NCBI GenBank assembly: GCA_002372315.1
Contig: DFFU01000004.1
Location: forward strand, 29,785 to 93,784
Length of the DNA stretch: 64,000 nt
From: Alphaproteobacteria bacterium UBA3768
Lineage (GTDB): Bacteria > Pseudomonadota > Alphaproteobacteria > CAAHEQ01 > UBA3637
Direction of reading: 5' to 3'
Positions 25,806 through 63,898 of this stretch are shown piece by piece. The position numbers and the translations under genes were made by a program. Positions within the stretch are counted from its first letter, which is position 1, and each line of letters starts with the position of its first letter. Under the pieces are notes generated by a model. It made no database searches and was not told the origin of the DNA. It saw only the letters and a program-made list of their open reading frames with translations.

Positions 25806-26596
25806 TCAGAATAAATTTCAGAATTTAGCATTACTTCAAATCCACTTTTTTTGAATATGTATGGTATCAATGAAAAATAGTTTCTTACCAAATCACTTTC
25901 ACGACTTATAGATGGATTTTCCCCATTTTTATATTGTCGGTATATTTGGGCAATTTTATCTGTATATTCTGCAAAACTTTGTGCGGAGAGATAGCCTTCT
26001 TTTTTTAACTTTTCGCTAACTTGATCAGGATGATTTATCACGAGTTGAGTCATGTATATCTCAGAATTTTTTTTCAAGGATTCTTTTTGTTGTGGGGATA
26101 AAGAAGCGTATATTATATCTAGACCGTTTTTAAATTGAATCAATGATTCTGAAGGAACAAGGACATCGCCGTTCATAGGATTTTTTTTAAGAAAATTGGT
26201 AAAAAGTTGATGAGGATTGCCTTCTGAAGTCTCTGTATTCTTTTCACCCCACATCTCTGGTGCTAAAAAGTAGTAAAATTGGGCAGGTAAATATTCCAAT
26301 AACTCTGGATCATTTTGGAATCTCTTGGCAATGCGCGTTGGGCGTTTTCCCTTCCATACTAAAACATCTGGATGTGTTTTGATTTTTTTGGGAATAGATT
26401 GTTTCTCTGACAGCATGGGAAATATATATTGACGTTGTTCAAATGGAGTTTGCAATAAGAATTCCAATAGTTCATCTTGATGTTTTACTAGTTCTTGGCG
26501 ATGTTGTTTAGCACGTTCTCCAATATCTATTTCTTGGGCAAAAATTTTGTTTGAAAAAGCCAAAACAGTCATGAATAAAAAAAGTATTTTTCTCAT
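25802..26596 (-). CDS. hypothetical secreted protein (signal peptide)
   Basis: MRKILFLFMTVLAFSNKIFAQE signal; overlaps the upstream ORF by 4 nt. Confidence 0.5.
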   Translation of the reverse strand: MRKILFLFMTVLAFSNKIFAQEIDIGERAKQHRQELVKHQDELLEFLLQTPFEQRQYIFPMLSEKQSIPKKIKTHPDVLVWKGKRPTRIAKRFQNDPELLEYLPAQFYYFLAPEMWGEKNTETSEGNPHQLFTNFLKKNPMNGDVLVPSESLIQFKNGLDIIYASLSPQQKESLKKNSEIYMTQLVINHPDQVSEKLKKEGYLSAQSFAEYTDKIAQIYRQYKNGENPSISRESDLVRNYFSLIPYIFKKSGFEVMLNSEIYSD

Positions 26597-27837
26597 TGTT
26601 CCTCCTTATTTTTATGCATTTTATGAACTAACGCTTGTCTGGGATACAGAATATACATGTCGGTACAAATGATACAAATAACTATTAACAAAAATAATGC
26701 CATCAAATAATAAAAGGGTAAAAATATTTGGAAAATGTATGATGATAAAAAGGTAAGAAACAACAGAAAAATAGAGCCAATTGTAATTTCGCCACAACGA
26801 TAAAACCAGCAGATAATTGGGTTTGTTGATATTTTTTTAAAGCGTTTGAGTAAACGTGATAAGTCTAAAAAATAAATTTCAAGAGCTGATAAAATAAAGT
26901 AAATAAGTATAATGGTAAATGAGATACAAAAAAGGATTTCTTTCGTCATAGAAAATGGAATATTATTTTGATAAGGGGCTAAATCGTTTTGTTCTCCGGA
27001 TAGCTGAATTTGTGTAAAAGCTGGTAGAATATGATTGTTTTTAAAAAAGATATTGCCTTGTTCGTCTGTATTGAAATCAAAATTTTGGGGGATTTCTAAA
27101 TTGTTATTTCCCAATAAAAATTGAGGATTTTTAACACCTGTTTTTCCGTTTAAAATTATACCTGAAAAATTGTCTATTACTAAAGGCCACGAATTGGAAA
27201 TCAATGGTAAAATAAAATTTTTGTCGTGTTTATAATACAGTACGTAATTCAATAAAATTTTGTGTAATCCAGGCTTTAAAGATTCAAAATTAAGTTGTGT
27301 ATTTTCCTTGTTTAAACTTATGTATTTCCCATCAATTTGGATGCTCATAAAAGAAATATTTTGTTGAGAAAATAAGGGCCAAGATCTCAAGAGAGGCATA
27401 TCTTCTGTGATAACAAATTGGATACTTTCTTGAATGCTTACTGAATCATTATCCATCGGTTGGATAATAAAATTCCAATCAGAGGTGTGATTGACATATT
27501 TTATCTCTTTTGTATGTCCAAAAAAATTTGTTGTGATAATACCTCTTTCCCTTGTTGAATCGTCTGGAAAAGAAGAGGTGTCATCTAAGTGTGGAACATA
27601 AGAATTATTGGGGATTTCCATTGAACCAAACAATTTAATTTTCATTTCATCCATCCAAGTCTCAGGTTGTGGTTTATCGGAAATACCTTGGATATACACT
27701 AAAGCCCCCCCCTTAAAATTTTTGGGTTTATTATTAAAAACAAGGTTGGGATTATTTTCTGAAAAAGTATCAATCGTTACTTCTTGGGCAAGAACTGGAA
27801 AAATAATTAAGCCAAAAATAATCAATAATTTCTTCAT
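26593..27837 (-). CDS. hypothetical protein: signal peptide, ~300-aa periplasmic domain, C-terminal polytopic TM region
   Basis: hydropathy read from the translation; overlaps the nth start by 4 nt. Confidence 0.5.
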   Translation of the reverse strand: MKKLLIIFGLIIFPVLAQEVTIDTFSENNPNLVFNNKPKNFKGGALVYIQGISDKPQPETWMDEMKIKLFGSMEIPNNSYVPHLDDTSSFPDDSTRERGIITTNFFGHTKEIKYVNHTSDWNFIIQPMDNDSVSIQESIQFVITEDMPLLRSWPLFSQQNISFMSIQIDGKYISLNKENTQLNFESLKPGLHKILLNYVLYYKHDKNFILPLISNSWPLVIDNFSGIILNGKTGVKNPQFLLGNNNLEIPQNFDFNTDEQGNIFFKNNHILPAFTQIQLSGEQNDLAPYQNNIPFSMTKEILFCISFTIILIYFILSALEIYFLDLSRLLKRFKKISTNPIICWFYRCGEITIGSIFLLFLTFLSSYIFQIFLPFYYLMALFLLIVICIICTDMYILYPRQALVHKMHKNKEEQ

Positions 27838-57522: not shown

Positions 57523-57611
57523 TTTTTTGCTCCCTTTTTTAAAAATTGTTGCAACTTTTTTCAAAAAATGTATATACTATGTACACTATTTTTGAGAAAA
57601 GGGAAAGAAAA

Positions 57612-58379
57612 ATGTTTGTTATTTGTCCAAAATGTTCTGCTAAATACCGGATTCCGAGTGAAATTACGCTGCAAGAAGGGCAAAAAATGCAATGTTCAGC
57701 TTGTAAGCATATTTTTGTTTATGAACAAATAAAAAACGAATCGTTTGAAACGGAAGTTGAAATTCCTAAAGATCCCGTGTTGCCTTCAGGAAATGTAGTA
57801 ATTAAAGAGGAAAATATTCTTATCAAAAAATCTTTACCAGAAGTATTTAAACCAGTACAACCAATGTCGGTATCACAAGGTTCAAAAGTTTTTGTATGCG
57901 TATTTATTTTTATCCTTGTGTTATTTTTGTGTATGGCAATGTGGTTTGTTCGTGATATACTTAAGACAGATTACACGTCATTTAATTCAGATAACCACAT
58001 ACCAAGAGTTGGAACCGTTCCTAATTTGCCAGATTCAAAAGAAATTGAAATTCCTTTGTTTGAAAATGGAATTTCCGAAAGTAAAACCTCTAGCATAGAA
58101 GGTCTTGATAATTTTTTACACTTTCATTCAGTGCGTTTTCACAAGCAGGCAGAATCATTGTTGATTGAAGGTATTATACAAAATGATGCTAATTTTTCAC
58201 AAAAATTACCTGAACGCATATATGCGACAGGTTACAATCAGCACGGCAAAGAGTTATTTCAAAAAGAGATTTTCTTATCCAATGATATTATTGAGCCTTA
58301 TGGGCAAAAGGCATTTTTTGGAACATATTCACCGGCGCCCAACGGTGTACAATGGATAGAGGTTTCATGCAAAAAGTAA
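57612..58379 (+). CDS. zinc-ribbon (MJ0042-type) N-terminal domain membrane protein
   Basis: MFVICPKCSAKY...CSACKH ribbon, then a TM helix and C-terminal domain. Confidence 0.5.
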   Translation: MFVICPKCSAKYRIPSEITLQEGQKMQCSACKHIFVYEQIKNESFETEVEIPKDPVLPSGNVVIKEENILIKKSLPEVFKPVQPMSVSQGSKVFVCVFIFILVLFLCMAMWFVRDILKTDYTSFNSDNHIPRVGTVPNLPDSKEIEIPLFENGISESKTSSIEGLDNFLHFHSVRFHKQAESLLIEGIIQNDANFSQKLPERIYATGYNQHGKELFQKEIFLSNDIIEPYGQKAFFGTYSPAPNGVQWIEVSCKK

Positions 58380-59098
58380 TTTTTCTTTTGATTCTAGGAA
58401 TGTCTTTTACTTGTAAGGCTGCTTGTCCCTTAGCAGATTCCTTTTTTGAAAAAGGTAGAACAGATATTGCGGTAGGTTTTTTAAATAGTTGTGCGCTGAA
58501 TTATAATGATGATGAATCGCAAATGAAATTAGCCAAAGCATATGCAGATGGCGATTATAATTTGACTGTAAATCCCAGATATTCTCTTTATTATTATCAA
58601 TTGGCAGCAGAAACAGGTAATGCAGAAGCACAACTGGCTTTGGCGCAAGCTCTCATCAAAGCAGATAAAACGTCCGAAAGTCGTAAAGATTTGCTTGATT
58701 ATCGTTCTAAATTAAAAGTAACCTCTGATGAGACTGATAAAAATACTTTTAATGGAGATTTTATTCATCCATATGCTCTTTTGATGTTAGCAAGTGAATC
58801 CCCCAGCAAAAAATGGTATTATCCAAGTTTAGTGCGTAATGCGCCACCAAAAGCAGTTTCTCTATTTAAAAGTTATAAGATAAGTGACGAAAAGAAAAAA
58901 ATAGCCTTGAGACAGGCATCTCAATTTAAAACACGAAAATTATTACAAACCGCGAAAGAGATTATGCCATCTGATGAGTATCAAACAATGGAAAAGAAGT
59001 TAAAAAATCCTCAAACACAAAATCAAGCACTGGATGAGCTGAAAATAAAAATGCAAGAATATATTGAACAAAAAAATAACATGCGGAAAACAAAATGA
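58367..59098 (+). CDS. Sel1/TPR-like repeat secreted protein
   Basis: signal peptide; Sel1-like AKAYADGDY...GNAEAQLALAQAL repeats. Confidence 0.5.
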   Translation: MQKVIFLLILGMSFTCKAACPLADSFFEKGRTDIAVGFLNSCALNYNDDESQMKLAKAYADGDYNLTVNPRYSLYYYQLAAETGNAEAQLALAQALIKADKTSESRKDLLDYRSKLKVTSDETDKNTFNGDFIHPYALLMLASESPSKKWYYPSLVRNAPPKAVSLFKSYKISDEKKKIALRQASQFKTRKLLQTAKEIMPSDEYQTMEKKLKNPQTQNQALDELKIKMQEYIEQKNNMRKTK

Positions 59099-60399
59099 AA
59101 AAAAAATTATATATAAAAACTTTTGGCTGTCAAATGAACGTGTACGATTCTGCACGGATGCGTGATGCATTGATGGTTTTAGGGTACGCTGAAACAGATA
59201 AACCAGAATTTGCAGACGTGATTTTAATAAACACTTGTCACATTCGTGAAAAAGCGAGCGAAAAGCTTTTTTCTGAACTGGGGCGTCTGGGGCAAATCAA
59301 AAAGAAAAACGCCCTGATTGTTGTCGCGGGATGCGTAGTTCAGGCAGACGGTGCTGAAATTTTACGTCGTAGTCCTTTAATTGATATTGCTTTGGGGCCA
59401 CAAAGCTATCACGAACTTCCCAAAATTTTAACCGAATATAATCGTCAAAAGGGACGTGCGATCAGGGCTGAATTTCCTGCTGAATCTAAATTTGATTTTT
59501 TACCCCGACCACAAAAAAGTTCAGCCAATGCGTTTTTGGCGATTCAAGAAGGATGTGATAATTTTTGTTCTTATTGTGTGGTACCTTATACACGTGGATG
59601 TGAATATTCTCGTCCATCAACTGAGATTTTAAAGGAAGCTAAAGAATTGGTTAAATTGGGTGCAAAAGAGATCATGCTATTGGGACAGAATGTGAATTCT
59701 TGGCATGGTGACCAGGGTAGGGACTTGGGGGATTTAATTCGTGATATGGCCAAAATTCGTGGGTTAAAGCGAATTCGTTATACAACATCCTATCCCAGTA
59801 AAATGACGCAAAATCTTATCAATACACATGCTGATACGAAAAAGTTGATGCCATATATTCATTTGCCAATTCAGTCAGGATCTGATAGAATTTTGAAAGC
59901 CATGAATCGACAATACACAGTGGCAGAATATGAAAAAATAATCGCGCAATTTCGTGCTGTACGCCCCGATATTGCCATTTCATCGGATTTTATTGTAGGC
60001 TTTCCAGGGGAAACAGAGGGAGATTTTGAACAAACCTTGGCATTAGTTGAACGCGTGAAATACGCTAGTTCTTTTTCTTTTAAATTTAGTGCGCGTCCTG
60101 GTACACCGGCTAGTTTGATGAAAAATCAAATTCCAGAGGATATAAAGACAAAACGTTTGATGAAACTTCAAAAACTGCTACAATCTCAGCAACGCGCCTT
60201 TAATGAAGCAACTGTTGATAAGGAATTGGATGTTTTGTTAATCGAACGTGGAAAAGAAAATGGACAGTTGTTGGGATATAGTCCCTATATGCAGGGAACG
60301 GTTGTAAAAGCGCCTCTGAATATGTTGGGTGAAATCGTCCGCGTTAAAATTATTGGTGCTTCTGCGACCGCTATCACAGGTAAGATTATTACTCAATAG
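59095..60399 (+). CDS. miaB: tRNA-i6A37 methylthiotransferase
   Basis: MTTase N-domain, radical SAM CxxxCxxC (CSYC), C-terminal TRAM domain. Confidence 0.9.
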   Translation: MKKKLYIKTFGCQMNVYDSARMRDALMVLGYAETDKPEFADVILINTCHIREKASEKLFSELGRLGQIKKKNALIVVAGCVVQADGAEILRRSPLIDIALGPQSYHELPKILTEYNRQKGRAIRAEFPAESKFDFLPRPQKSSANAFLAIQEGCDNFCSYCVVPYTRGCEYSRPSTEILKEAKELVKLGAKEIMLLGQNVNSWHGDQGRDLGDLIRDMAKIRGLKRIRYTTSYPSKMTQNLINTHADTKKLMPYIHLPIQSGSDRILKAMNRQYTVAEYEKIIAQFRAVRPDIAISSDFIVGFPGETEGDFEQTLALVERVKYASSFSFKFSARPGTPASLMKNQIPEDIKTKRLMKLQKLLQSQQRAFNEATVDKELDVLLIERGKENGQLLGYSPYMQGTVVKAPLNMLGEIVRVKIIGASATAITGKIITQ

Positions 60400-60410
60400 G
60401 GATAAATAAT

Positions 60411-61691
60411 ATGCCTTTAAAAAAGGAATTTAACTCTACTTCAAAAAAATTGATGCGAGTGATGGCTTTAGCTTCTTTACTACAAGGTTGTTGTATATCT
60501 ACTCCCACGCCAAAAATAAGATTTCCTGAATTTCCCGATAAAGAGCAAAAAAGTTTAGTACTAGATAATTTGACACCTGATGAAGAAAAATACATTTATT
60601 CTTTTATGCAGGATTACGCACAAAAAAGTCCATCAGCTAAAAAATTATTAGAAGAACTAGCTTGTCAAAATGCACATTTAAATTTTTTTAACTCAGAGTT
60701 AGGGGCTGGAGGCATTTTTCATGCGGGATTATCTGATGAAAATAATTTGGGATTAAACAGAGGTATAAAAGAAAAAGGTATTTCTTTAGCGGATACTTTT
60801 TTTCATGAAGCCGAACACGTTGTTCATTTAAAACAATCCCATAAAAACGGAATTAATGCGCACAGCTTTTCTTCATTAAATGATGTTTATATATACGCAA
60901 CTTTATTGGAGGCCTTAGCCTATCGTAAAGCGGCGCTTTGTTGCGGAGAATATGCCCACAAATTATCACCAAAACAAATACTAAAAAATGCAGATGATGT
61001 TTTTAAAAAACGATTACATACAGGTAGTAAATATATGGAAGAACGTTTAACCTATGAACGTGATGCAATTGTGATGGCAAATTCTGAAACAAATACCTTA
61101 CCCAATCAGATTTATTATAAAAAAAAGCCAGATTGGAATAAAATCGTTTCTATTTTAAGTCGTGATGAAGTAAAAAAAATGCCTTTACTACCTCAGCCAA
61201 CCTTATTATTTTTGTCTGCTTGCCTATACCGAGAATTGGAAAAAAATCCTAATGCAGAATCATTGAATGATTTAGATATATCGTGCGTTTTAACCAATCG
61301 TTCTGCATTACAAAAAAATGAAAAAGAAATCAAAGCAATGGTGTCTAATTTATTGATAGAGGTATATGACTTATGCCAAAAATCTGATAAACCTCTTTCA
61401 GATAAGATGATGTATGCTTTTTTATATACTATTGGATGGCCCAACAAACAGCAACAGGAACAAATAGAACGGAAAATAATAGATTTTGAAACTATTCGTG
61501 ATGAAAATTTGGCCAAATTTAAAACAGGGGAATTATTTGATCGAGCAATTTTATTACTTAATAGTAAGGAAATACAAGATCATCAGATTCCTAAATTTGA
61601 AATTTACCCAAAAGTCTTAAAATTTGAAAAAATGATTTTGCTTCCTGAGATAGGACAACAAAAAATAAATGCAAAACAATCAACCAGATAA
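60411..61691 (+). CDS. hypothetical lipoprotein with a zincin-like HEAEH motif, paralog 1
   Basis: lipobox LLQGC; FFHEAEHVVH..SH.NGI...F.SL.D.YI....LEALAYRK conserved with the downstream paralog. Confidence 0.55.
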   Translation: MPLKKEFNSTSKKLMRVMALASLLQGCCISTPTPKIRFPEFPDKEQKSLVLDNLTPDEEKYIYSFMQDYAQKSPSAKKLLEELACQNAHLNFFNSELGAGGIFHAGLSDENNLGLNRGIKEKGISLADTFFHEAEHVVHLKQSHKNGINAHSFSSLNDVYIYATLLEALAYRKAALCCGEYAHKLSPKQILKNADDVFKKRLHTGSKYMEERLTYERDAIVMANSETNTLPNQIYYKKKPDWNKIVSILSRDEVKKMPLLPQPTLLFLSACLYRELEKNPNAESLNDLDISCVLTNRSALQKNEKEIKAMVSNLLIEVYDLCQKSDKPLSDKMMYAFLYTIGWPNKQQQEQIERKIIDFETIRDENLAKFKTGELFDRAILLLNSKEIQDHQIPKFEIYPKVLKFEKMILLPEIGQQKINAKQSTR

Positions 61692-61738
61692 AATCTTATG
61701 ACAGACAAAATTAAAAAAACGATCAATAGGAGTATTTA

Positions 61739-63160
61739 ATGAATAAAAAAATATCAGATTATTATATTCAATCATACGTTCCAAAAGAAAAATCGTCTCT
61801 TAAGAAAAAATTAAAAATATTATCCTTGTGGGGATTGGGAATAGGAAGTGCTTTTTGGGGATCACAGGTAGCTATTAATAAAATATTTAAAGAAAAAAAT
61901 TCTACAGTCGTAGATATTCAAGAAGGCAAAATAGATTATCAATCATTGATTACTCAAACAACAGATGAAGAGGACAAAAATACTTTATTGCAGCTTATAA
62001 AATGGGCGGAAGAGATTCCATCGGGTAGAAACGTACTAAATGCGTTAAAAAAACACAAAACCCAGCTTTTTATGCTGAATTTAGTTGGTGATGAATATGG
62101 CGTTTCTTTTCCTGATTTATCAGGAGTTTGTCTAAATTCAGCTTTGCTCAATCAGGATGAAAATAGGTATTTGGCGTTTGCCGCATTTATTCATGAAGCT
62201 GAACACATTCGTGTGATGGGGCTATCGCATCAAAACGGGATAGGTTTAACCAGTTTCCAATCCTTAGATGACCAATATATTTTTGGAACGATAAATGAAT
62301 CTCTGGCTGTACGTAAGAGTGTACAGGCTGTTCAAGAACTGATAAAAAAACACCCTGATTGGCCTTATGCGAAAAAATGGCAAGATTTATTGAATAGGGA
62401 ATATGCTACAAAGGGAAATTTAAAGCACATTGCTGATTTAGCTTTTGAAAAGCGAATGGAAAATTTGACGGGACTAGGGGCTTCCTTACATTATGAAACA
62501 CATATTCCACAAATCAAGGAAGAAATTCAAAATCAAAGAAAATTTCCTAAAAATCCTGATTGGAACCAAATTATCAAAATGATAACAGATAATGAGGTTA
62601 AAAGTGTATCTGTATTTCCTGTACCAAGTTTCTATATGGCACGAAGTATGATTTTCAACGAAATGGCAAAGCAAGAGGAAAATATTGGAAATTATACCCC
62701 TAAATTAAAAGACTTGGATTTAAGTTGTATTATTAAGAATAAAGCTAGCATGCTCAAAAAAGGTGATTTTTGTGATTGCATCTGTCGGGACATTGCCTAT
62801 ATGGCTGAGGAAATATATCAATATCACAAAAACGATAAAGATATAAAAGAATGGTTTTCTGAGTTACAAAAATTGATGCCCAAAAAACAAATTGAAAAAA
62901 TAAAAAGCCCAAACAAGAATAATTTAAAATGGAATGATAAAGAATTAAATGATTTTTTATCCAAGCAAGACAATTTTGAATATTTAAAGAAAGCCCAAAA
63001 GTTATTATCTAGTGATAAGTTAAAAGTCGTAACTTCTAGTGAAGCAGCTTATTTTTACCTTCGCCAAAGACAAAATCTTTTTAAAATTTATGATGAACTC
63101 TTTTTTGAAAATGAAAATAGACAATTAATTTCACGAAAAAGGTCATCTGAGAATCATTAA
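61739..63160 (+). CDS. hypothetical protein with a zincin-like HEAEH motif, paralog 2
   Basis: N-terminal hydrophobic segment; FIHEAEHIRV..SHQNGI...F.SLDD.YI....NESLAVRK; further shared blocks (NPDWN.I; L.DLD.SC). Confidence 0.55.
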   Translation: MNKKISDYYIQSYVPKEKSSLKKKLKILSLWGLGIGSAFWGSQVAINKIFKEKNSTVVDIQEGKIDYQSLITQTTDEEDKNTLLQLIKWAEEIPSGRNVLNALKKHKTQLFMLNLVGDEYGVSFPDLSGVCLNSALLNQDENRYLAFAAFIHEAEHIRVMGLSHQNGIGLTSFQSLDDQYIFGTINESLAVRKSVQAVQELIKKHPDWPYAKKWQDLLNREYATKGNLKHIADLAFEKRMENLTGLGASLHYETHIPQIKEEIQNQRKFPKNPDWNQIIKMITDNEVKSVSVFPVPSFYMARSMIFNEMAKQEENIGNYTPKLKDLDLSCIIKNKASMLKKGDFCDCICRDIAYMAEEIYQYHKNDKDIKEWFSELQKLMPKKQIEKIKSPNKNNLKWNDKELNDFLSKQDNFEYLKKAQKLLSSDKLKVVTSSEAAYFYLRQRQNLFKIYDELFFENENRQLISRKRSSENH

Positions 63161-63226: not shown

Positions 63227-63898
63227 ATGAGTGAAGATTTAACCCTAAAAACAAAATTAAAACACATTAATCCGCGCACTGCCAATCAAAGTGCTTTTAT
63301 TGAAGCAATGAATACCCATGATTTGACTTTTGGTATGGGGCCAGCAGGTACAGGAAAAACTTATTTGGCTGTGGCAAAAGCTGTGGCAGAAATGGAAGCC
63401 AAGAAAGTGGATAAAATTATATTGACGCGTCCAGCAGTAGAGGCTGGGGAAAACTTGGGATTTTTGCCTGGTGATTTAAAAGAAAAGATAGACCCGTATT
63501 TACGCCCACTTTATGATGCCCTTTATGAAATGTTGCCTCGTGATATAGTAGATAAAAAGATCCAAAATGGTGAAATTGAAATTGCGCCTTTGGCATATAT
63601 GCGGGGGCGGACTTTATCCCATGCGGTTGTCATTTTGGATGAAGCGCAAAACACAACTCCAATGCAAATGAAAATGTTTTTAACTCGTCTGGGTGAGGGA
63701 TCAAAAATGGTCGTTAATGGTGATTTGACCCAAACAGATTTGCCACGAGGAATGGAATCTGGATTAAAAGAAGCAGAACGTGTTTTGTCTAAAATAACTG
63801 AGGTGGCTTTCATCCAATTTGATGACCATGATGTCGTACGCCATGGTCTGGTATCCAAGATTGTAAATGCTTATGCGAAAGATAAAGAATGCAAGTAG
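63227..63898 (+). CDS. phoH: PhoH-like ATPase (core domain only)
   Basis: Walker A GPAGTGKT and PhoH core motifs; normally adjacent to miaB. Confidence 0.8.

Follow-up and report, generated by a model that had tools for sequence, protein, structure and literature searches.

Two paralogous zincin-fold proteins, candidate exported metalloproteases, encoded between miaB and phoH in an uncultured alphaproteobacterium

A described protein to set beside the genes reported here is NleD of MEROPS family M91, which carries its HExxH motif at H142, E143 and H146 and, as a type III effector, cleaves JNK and p38 (PMC11475232). A nearer relative in sequence is the Pfam family DUF6782 (PF20573), described as a 'Putative metallopeptidase family'; neither name was mentioned in the literature searched, and the comparison therefore brings no function. 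The genes in question are two neighbours, referred to as paralog 1 and paralog 2, that lie between miaB and phoH in a 64,000-nucleotide stretch of DNA from Alphaproteobacteria bacterium UBA3768 (assembly GCA_002372315.1, contig DFFU01000004.1, positions 29,785 to 93,784), the whole of which is called the window. We favour, with moderate confidence, the reading that the products of both genes are exported, zinc-dependent endopeptidases that act at the cell surface and belong to a small, lineage-restricted zincin family, a proposal that draws on conserved residues and on predicted folds.

The locus comprises the following features, in window coordinates (aa, amino acids; ORF, open reading frame).

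59095-60399, plus strand: miaB, the upstream flank, outside the zincin family (Pfam UPF0004, Radical_SAM and TRAM)
60411-61691, plus strand: paralog 1 (type 1), an ORF for a 426-aa lipoprotein-like protein of predicted zincin fold; 21 orthologs at 40-80% identity
60411-60494, plus strand: putative signal peptide of paralog 1, aa 1-28, with a basic n-region, a short hydrophobic region, a lipobox-like LLQG-C-C and a conserved Cys
60804-60818, plus strand: paralog 1 HEAEH (H132, E133, H136), putative metal ligands and catalytic base; invariant in alignments A4 and A6; model helix 126-145
60909-60929, plus strand: paralog 1 EALAYRK (E167), putative third metal ligand; Glu invariant in both subtypes; model helix 156-182
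61011-61139, plus strand: paralog 1 C-terminal-domain residues R201, Y215-E216 and P-D-W-N (W242); W invariant, R and Y nearly so across subtypes
61739-63160, plus strand: paralog 2 (type 2), an ORF for a 473-aa protein of predicted zincin fold with an N-terminal hydrophobic segment; 14 relatives at 19-32% identity
61811-61861, plus strand: Gly-rich hydrophobic segment of paralog 2, LKILSLWGLGIGSAFWG, aa 25-41, a putative Sec signal or signal anchor
62192-62206, plus strand: paralog 2 HEAEH (H152, E153, H156); invariant in alignments A5 and A6; model helix 140-165
62297-62317, plus strand: paralog 2 ESLAVRK (E187), putative third metal ligand; Glu invariant; model helix 176-204
62453-62566, plus strand: paralog 2 equivalents R239, Y252 and P-D-W-N (W275), from the cross-subtype alignment
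63227-63898, plus strand: phoH/ybeZ, the downstream flank and head of phoH-ybeY-corC (Pfam PhoH, E=8.7e-95)

Both ORFs occupy exactly the positions given to them by the initial annotation of this DNA, and both are free of frameshifts and internal stops. BLASTP aligns their products with E=2e-26 and 29% identity across 280 residues, which bears out the paralogy that had been proposed. As for the motifs listed there as common to the two, [FI]HEAEH, SH-x-NGI, SL[ND]D-x-YI, E[AS]LA-x-RK, K-x-PDWN-x-I and L-x-DLD-x-SC[VI] are present in both proteins, and one detail needs correcting: the spacer from NGI to the following F is of four residues, not five. The Glu that had been noted some 30 residues past HExxH is found 31 residues after the second His in each protein (E167 and E187).

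These residues are the fixed points of an otherwise divergent family. In a cross-subtype alignment of 29 sequences, 18-31% identical to paralog 2, the invariant positions (paralog 2 numbering) are H152, E153, H156, E187, W275 and P294, while D178, L189, A190, R192, E200, F236, R239 and Y252 are nearly invariant; the retention of both His and both Glu at such low identity places the HExxH motif and the downstream Glu beyond chance. Members of type 2 vary the second Glu of HEAEH, giving HEATH, HEAGH or HEGRH, so the motif of the family is HExxH rather than HEAEH. In type 1, conservation is greatest over the HExxH helix and the Glu helix, where the mean pairwise column identity is 0.64-0.83 and the highest-scoring 15-residue segment of the profile coincides with the EALAYRK region around E167 (0.83). 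A second peak (0.63-0.70) covers the block NQ..F...PDWN..VS.LSRGEV, and the minima (0.10-0.30) fall in the linker and the C-terminal tail, with the periphery as a whole at 0.10-0.45. The conserved R, Y and PDWN block may have a catalytic or substrate-binding role.

AlphaFold2 (AF2) gave confident models for both proteins: for paralog 1, from a 22-sequence alignment, the mean predicted local distance difference test (pLDDT) score was 85.9 and the predicted template modelling (pTM) score 0.80, and for paralog 2, from 29 sequences, the values were 83.0 and 0.82. In both models the order of elements runs from two helices through a three-strand sheet to the HExxH helix and the Glu helix, and then to an all-helical domain of about 230 residues. 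HExxH thus sits on an alpha-helix in each, the sheet subdomain precedes the active-site helix, as the zincin fold requires, and the invariant Glu is carried by the helix that comes right after. The predicted structures of both paralogs have a zincin layout with a putative third ligand of gluzincin type, and the zincin reading proposed earlier holds at the level of sequence and predicted fold. A Foldseek search of the models against the PDB returned nothing significant (best E=0.24, LTA4H), so there is no close solved structure.

Signals compatible with export are conserved throughout the members, in keeping with the lipoprotein-like LLQGC of paralog 1 and the hydrophobic N-terminus of paralog 2 that had been pointed out. 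At every type 1 N-terminus, a basic n-region and some 10 hydrophobic residues lead into a conserved [LF]-Q-x-G-C and a low-complexity linker; in paralog 1 the sequence LLQG|C fits the PROSITE lipobox PS51257, and the linker, aa 20-46, is disordered in the AF2 model (pLDDT<50). In paralog 2 a segment of 17 residues follows KKKLK and a basic n-region, and type 2 members all combine a basic n-region with a weakly hydrophobic stretch, rich in Gly and 12-17 residues long, which by its sequence is taken as a Sec signal or signal anchor. At the other end of the type 1 proteins, the C-terminal tail (…K-x-K-Q-S-T-R; 61650-61691 in the window) is conserved, basic and disordered, with Arg as the last residue in 22 of 25, and could be a secretion or membrane-binding signal. 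Several type 2 proteins terminate in …QNIHL.

The family is small. HMMER, run exhaustively over 1.84 billion representatives (clusters at 50% identity, standing for about 15 billion proteins), recovered just 22 clusters at E<=0.001. A word-indexed homology search with a core profile of both paralogs likewise matched 22 proteins; in the same kind of search, paralog 2 as lone query found only itself among the matches listed, and the type 2 profile found almost nothing among the matches listed. None of the members is named, and none has a Pfam domain among its precomputed annotations. Type 1 proteins have 411-437 aa and are 40-80% identical to paralog 1, whereas those of type 2, with 400-494 aa, are just 19-32% identical to paralog 2 and so are far more divergent. 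All traced members come from metagenomes or from metagenome-assembled genomes (MAGs) of uncultured ruminant or gut Alphaproteobacteria, and the species-representative genomes with type 1 are all labelled as uncultured Alphaproteobacteria, from sources that include goat abomasum and a rumen co-assembly. A metagenome scan gave only two fragments, both identical to the window. One protein, P0030 (303 aa), joins an unrelated N-terminus to about 100 residues of type 1 (aa 148-248) and a Pro/Arg/Ser/Ala-rich tail (TRPSPPIRRGTPPRGA…), and is probably an assembly or gene-calling chimera.

Links to named families were sought member by member with Pfam. DUF6782 matches 14 of the 15 type 2 members (best E=6.8e-8), of which four, P0027, P0031, P0032 and P0037, exceed its gathering score of 27 bits (29.2-30.4 bits); in the type 1 alignment A4 it matches 3 of 22 sequences, one of the three being paralog 2. 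Peptidase_M91, the NleD family, matches 5 of the 15 type 2 members, with P0032 alone at the cut-off (25.1 against 25 bits), and matches neither window protein. Both models match over the region from the N-terminal helices through the sheet to the HExxH helix. When the family profiles were compared by hhalign with the single NleD sequence of E. coli Sakai, the result was not significant (probability about 1-2%), although the local matches, to the T-x-x-G-R-x-LL helix and the FHExxH helix, were collinear with those of Pfam; NleC, run as a control, gave nothing. A search of PDB sequences with each paralog and with the type 2 profile (E<=10) matched no chain, 8s5f included, and NCBIfam yielded nothing relevant, TIGR04267 being absent from all 29 members examined at E<=1. 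Neither of the two window proteins reaches a Pfam cut-off, and the description of the family as one without a name is upheld.

The arrangement around the two genes is compact. Gaps of 11, 47 and 66 nt separate miaB, paralog 1, paralog 2 and phoH in turn, Shine-Dalgarno-like sequences precede paralog 1 (AGGGA), paralog 2 (AGGAG) and phoH (AAGGA), and no terminator-like site was found between the genes from miaB to phoH, a layout from which the four genes are probably co-transcribed as a single unit. The parent contig (195 kb) continues with ybeY and corC downstream of phoH. The family hidden Markov model (HMM) detected no additional copy in the window, and a minus-strand ORF within paralog 1 (61193-61516) was taken as a chance ORF in AT-rich DNA.

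The slot between miaB and phoH is occupied in at least 10 related metagenomic or MAG genomes. A type 1 gene stands directly 5' of phoH-ybeY-corC in the window and in loci L002/L007, L004, L005, L006, L008, L016 and L019, and directly 3' of miaB in L002, L004, L006, L008 and L021, where it starts 1 nt past the miaB stop or overlaps it by 8 nt. There are departures from this scheme: cstA replaces miaB upstream of type 1 in L019, two genuine TrbC/VirB2 pilin genes separate miaB from type 1 in L005, and the type 1 protein P0020 is encoded at another locus, with a Glyco_transf_9 gene on one side and an amidohydrolase gene on the other. A type 2 gene comes after type 1 in the window and in L002/L007, fills the slot alone in L012, is absent in L005, L006 and L008, and in at least one case, that of L009, lies at a different locus. 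At the type 2 position, L004 (5469-6329, plus strand, 286 aa) and L006 (9261-9737, minus strand, 158 aa) have unrelated ORFs with no Pfam match, the former of which was rejected as a family member for want of an HExxH motif and of a family-HMM match; these ORFs indicate gene turnover in the slot. The clearest case is that of L006, with type 1 only, and L012, with type 2 only, whose PhoH proteins are 99% and MiaB proteins 94% identical.

Two further observations concern the same slot and its upstream border. The pilin genes of L005 (3077-4033, minus strand) are tandem paralogs, both above the 27.9-bit cut-off at 30.8 and 29.2 bits, from which it appears that the lineage possesses pilins of type IV secretion or conjugation and that the slot collects envelope genes. 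Before miaB, at 57546-59098 on the plus strand of the window, two genes with overlapping ends encode a protein of 277 aa with Zn_ribbon_4 and one of 248 aa with Sel1 repeats and a signal-like N-terminus, and this pair is found upstream of miaB in all related loci.

Measured across the same loci, the two genes have changed far faster than their neighbours. Protein identity between loci is 77-94% for MiaB and 80-99% for PhoH, as against 40-71% for type 1 and 27-47% for type 2. By the Nei-Gojobori method, the nonsynonymous rate (dN) is 0.21-0.51 for type 1 and 0.47-0.79 for type 2, with ratios to the synonymous rate (dN/dS) of 0.15-0.31 and 0.21-0.31, respectively, while MiaB has a dN of 0.04-0.17 and a dN/dS of 0.017-0.065, and PhoH a dN of 0.014-0.14 and a dN/dS of 0.006-0.067. 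For the same genome pairs, the dN of the zincin genes thus exceeds that of MiaB and PhoH by a factor of about 5-30, and their dN/dS of 0.15-0.31 means that they are under purifying selection.

With respect to origin, the initial annotation had seen the two genes as a tandem duplication inserted into conserved synteny. The insertion did not stand: GC content, GC content at third codon positions and synonymous codon usage of both genes are native (z -1.5 to +1.3 against 52 window genes), tblastn found no significant relatives on plasmids or phages, and the slot is filled across the lineage, so that a recent horizontal insertion is rejected and the genes are better regarded as old residents of a variable slot. 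The duplication stood in part, in that the genes are paralogs; it is an ancient event, older than the sampled lineage, since the subtypes form separate clades and close genomes keep either or both.

From the foregoing we infer metal binding, proteolysis, cellular location and substrate class for the two proteins, in the following manner. The two His of HExxH would bind the metal together with the Glu 31 residues further on, in the next helix, as in a gluzincin-type site, and the Glu of the motif would serve as the general base. A lipoprotein anchor at the conserved Cys, followed by the disordered linker, probably tethers paralog 1 to a membrane, and paralog 2 would be exported or anchored by its N-terminal hydrophobic segment. 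The helical C-terminal domain of about 230 residues, with the conserved R, Y, PDWN and DLSC elements, probably closes the active-site cleft and recognises the substrate. Two subtypes would have arisen from the old duplication, related genomes retaining one, the other or both. The conserved active site, the remainder of the protein, whose rate of change is some tenfold that of the neighbours, and the turnover of genes, taken together, point to variable external substrates rather than conserved envelope clients, and the candidate substrates would be host, dietary, competitor or phage proteins.

Several observations weigh against this proposal of exported surface endopeptidases. Synonymous sites are saturated (dS 0.9-3.2), which makes the dN/dS values rough, and the fast evolution could reflect relaxed constraint instead of an external substrate. 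Paralog 2 scores 22.2 bits against DUF6782, under the 27-bit cut-off, and paralog 1 has no relevant Pfam match, DUF6782 included. The export signals are also imperfect: most type 1 orthologs carry Q at position -3 and fail the strict PROSITE lipobox pattern, so that, in view of the conserved Cys and the disordered linker, type 1 is a probable but non-canonical lipoprotein, and the segment of paralog 2 is only weakly hydrophobic, with a mean Kyte-Doolittle value of 1.41 over 15 residues.

A bolder extension of the surface-endopeptidase reading, to which we give limited credence, would make the miaB-phoH slot a diversifying surface-protease locus, in which two exported zincins of ancient duplication, resembling NleD or botulinum neurotoxin (BoNT), are swapped between near-identical genomes and change rapidly around an unvarying active site because they cleave specific host (e.g. 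mucosal or immune), protist or competitor proteins. If true, it would represent a new family of specificity proteases of commensals or symbionts.

An improbable alternative, in our view, is that the proteins are effector-type proteases acting as specific toxins after delivery into other bacteria or into the cells of a host or protist, in the manner of NleD, NleC, GtgA or the BoNT light chain, and possibly secreted by a type IV system. The basic C-terminal tail of type 1 recalls VirB/D4-type signals, and its disordered, Arg-ending form is consistent with such delivery, as are the weak Pfam matches to Peptidase_M91, the rapid evolution with presence/absence turnover, the gut and rumen habitat and the two TrbC/VirB2 pilin genes in the slot of L005. 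However, the N-terminal signals are of Sec type, and lipoprotein-like in type 1, which is a misfit with one-step type III or type IV delivery, and no secretion-system genes, type III included, were seen in the window. Moreover, type 1 behaves as a stable, syntenic and near-core gene of the lineage and not as a patchy island gene, the locus has no link to mobile elements, and the hhalign comparison with NleD was not significant. The effector-like character that the initial annotation had suggested agrees with the fast evolution, the gene turnover and the habitat, but neither a secretion system nor a substrate could be connected with the genes, and that part of its interpretation is to be moderated.

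Slightly less likely still is a housekeeping role, in which lineage-specific proteases of envelope quality control or maturation, similar to BepA or LoiP, would be kept in the miaB-phoH-ybeY-corC cluster for the sake of co-expression. A position kept in most genomes sampled, coupled to miaB and 5' of phoH, the native composition and the lipoprotein or periplasmic location would all agree with such a role; the excess of amino-acid divergence over the neighbouring genes would not, nor would the retention of different subtypes in L006 and L012 despite 99% PhoH identity, which is unlike an essential enzyme with conserved clients. In one lineage, furthermore, the gene lies elsewhere, beside a gene of the lipopolysaccharide (LPS) heptosyltransferase family.

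Two other explanations are very improbable. Oxygenases of the HExxH type, dependent on Fe(II) and α-ketoglutarate (αKG) and modifying a peptide, like ChlH, BpmH and PflC, would share a site of two His and one carboxylate, which is also a classic Fe(II) site, as well as conserved Arg residues and a radical S-adenosylmethionine (SAM) gene directly upstream, but the TIGR04267/IPR026337 model and the PDB entry 8s5f are unmatched, export signals are present, O2-dependent chemistry is unlikely in the rumen and gut, where the bacteria that carry the genes live, and the surroundings (miaB, phoH, ybeY, corC) are not those of a ribosomally synthesised and post-translationally modified peptide (RiPP). 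A pairing of miaB with the HExxH gene as a RiPP-like unit was accordingly rejected, since the radical SAM gene is an ordinary MiaB with UPF0004 and TRAM. Equally improbable are catalytically dead or decaying zincin-fold proteins with a binding or structural role at the surface, which would account for the high dN and the lineage-specific losses, but not for an HExxH and Glu that are invariant in about 40 sequences, active-site helices that are the best conserved part, a dN/dS well under 1 and the intact reading frames.

Three other ORFs, in the window or just beyond it, may be mentioned. A 460-aa ORF at 3226-4608 (plus strand) contains a full-length Pfam Mucin2_WxxW domain (PF13330; aa 251-337, E=1.4e-26, 93 bits), which is the CysD-type module found in the gel-forming mucins of animals, and hence a eukaryote-like domain in an alphaproteobacterium of gut or rumen. 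Downstream of corC, about 3.5 kb past the window end, a 2120-aa ORF (L001, 14209-20571, plus strand) has no Pfam match at E<=0.01 and comes after a 91-aa ORF and the gene of a GerE/LuxR-type regulator of 79 aa, an arrangement conserved in L004 (9119-13463). Within an otherwise housekeeping gene run, a 414-aa ORF at 26593-27837 (minus strand) has no Pfam match at E<=1e-5.

Zinc proteolysis by HExxH enzymes is in itself well known, and no general principle is altered by these genes. What is unusual is the pattern, in which an invariant catalytic centre is combined with rapid divergence elsewhere and with different paralogs in near-identical genomes. If active, the proteins would constitute an unnamed zincin family confined to uncultured gut and rumen Alphaproteobacteria and provided with a distinct helical C-terminal domain, and would be candidates for specific host- or community-directed proteolysis by poorly known gut bacteria. 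They would also connect the uncharacterised DUF6782 to the NleD-type effector proteases.

A comparison with known systems helps to place the family. The M1 aminopeptidases (ERAP1, LTA4H) and the BoNT light chains (M27) have no sequence similarity to it, with Foldseek values of E>=0.24; those gluzincins with a helical C-terminal domain differ from it in domain order and size, and the GxMEN exopeptidase motif of the M1 enzymes was not seen. The αKG-HExxH peptide hydroxylases are cytoplasmic and are covered by a model that the family does not match, whereas the window proteins are apparently exported, occur in anaerobic habitats and have no RiPP gene cluster around their genes. NleD and M91 come closer, being HExxH zincins whose T-x-x-G-R-x-LL and F-H-E-x-x-H helices are collinear with those of the family; NleD, however, has 232 aa, lacks a Sec signal and is delivered by type III injection, in contrast to the 426 and 473 aa, the Sec or lipoprotein signals and the large extra helical domain of the window proteins. 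DUF6782 is the nearest, since the N-terminal 60-180 residues of the family align to profile positions of about 20-170, although that profile leaves uncovered the C-terminal two-thirds, with the PDWN and DLSC blocks. Judged by these alignments, the description that suits the family best is that of a divergent branch, sister or peripheral to DUF6782, with a more remote relationship to M91.

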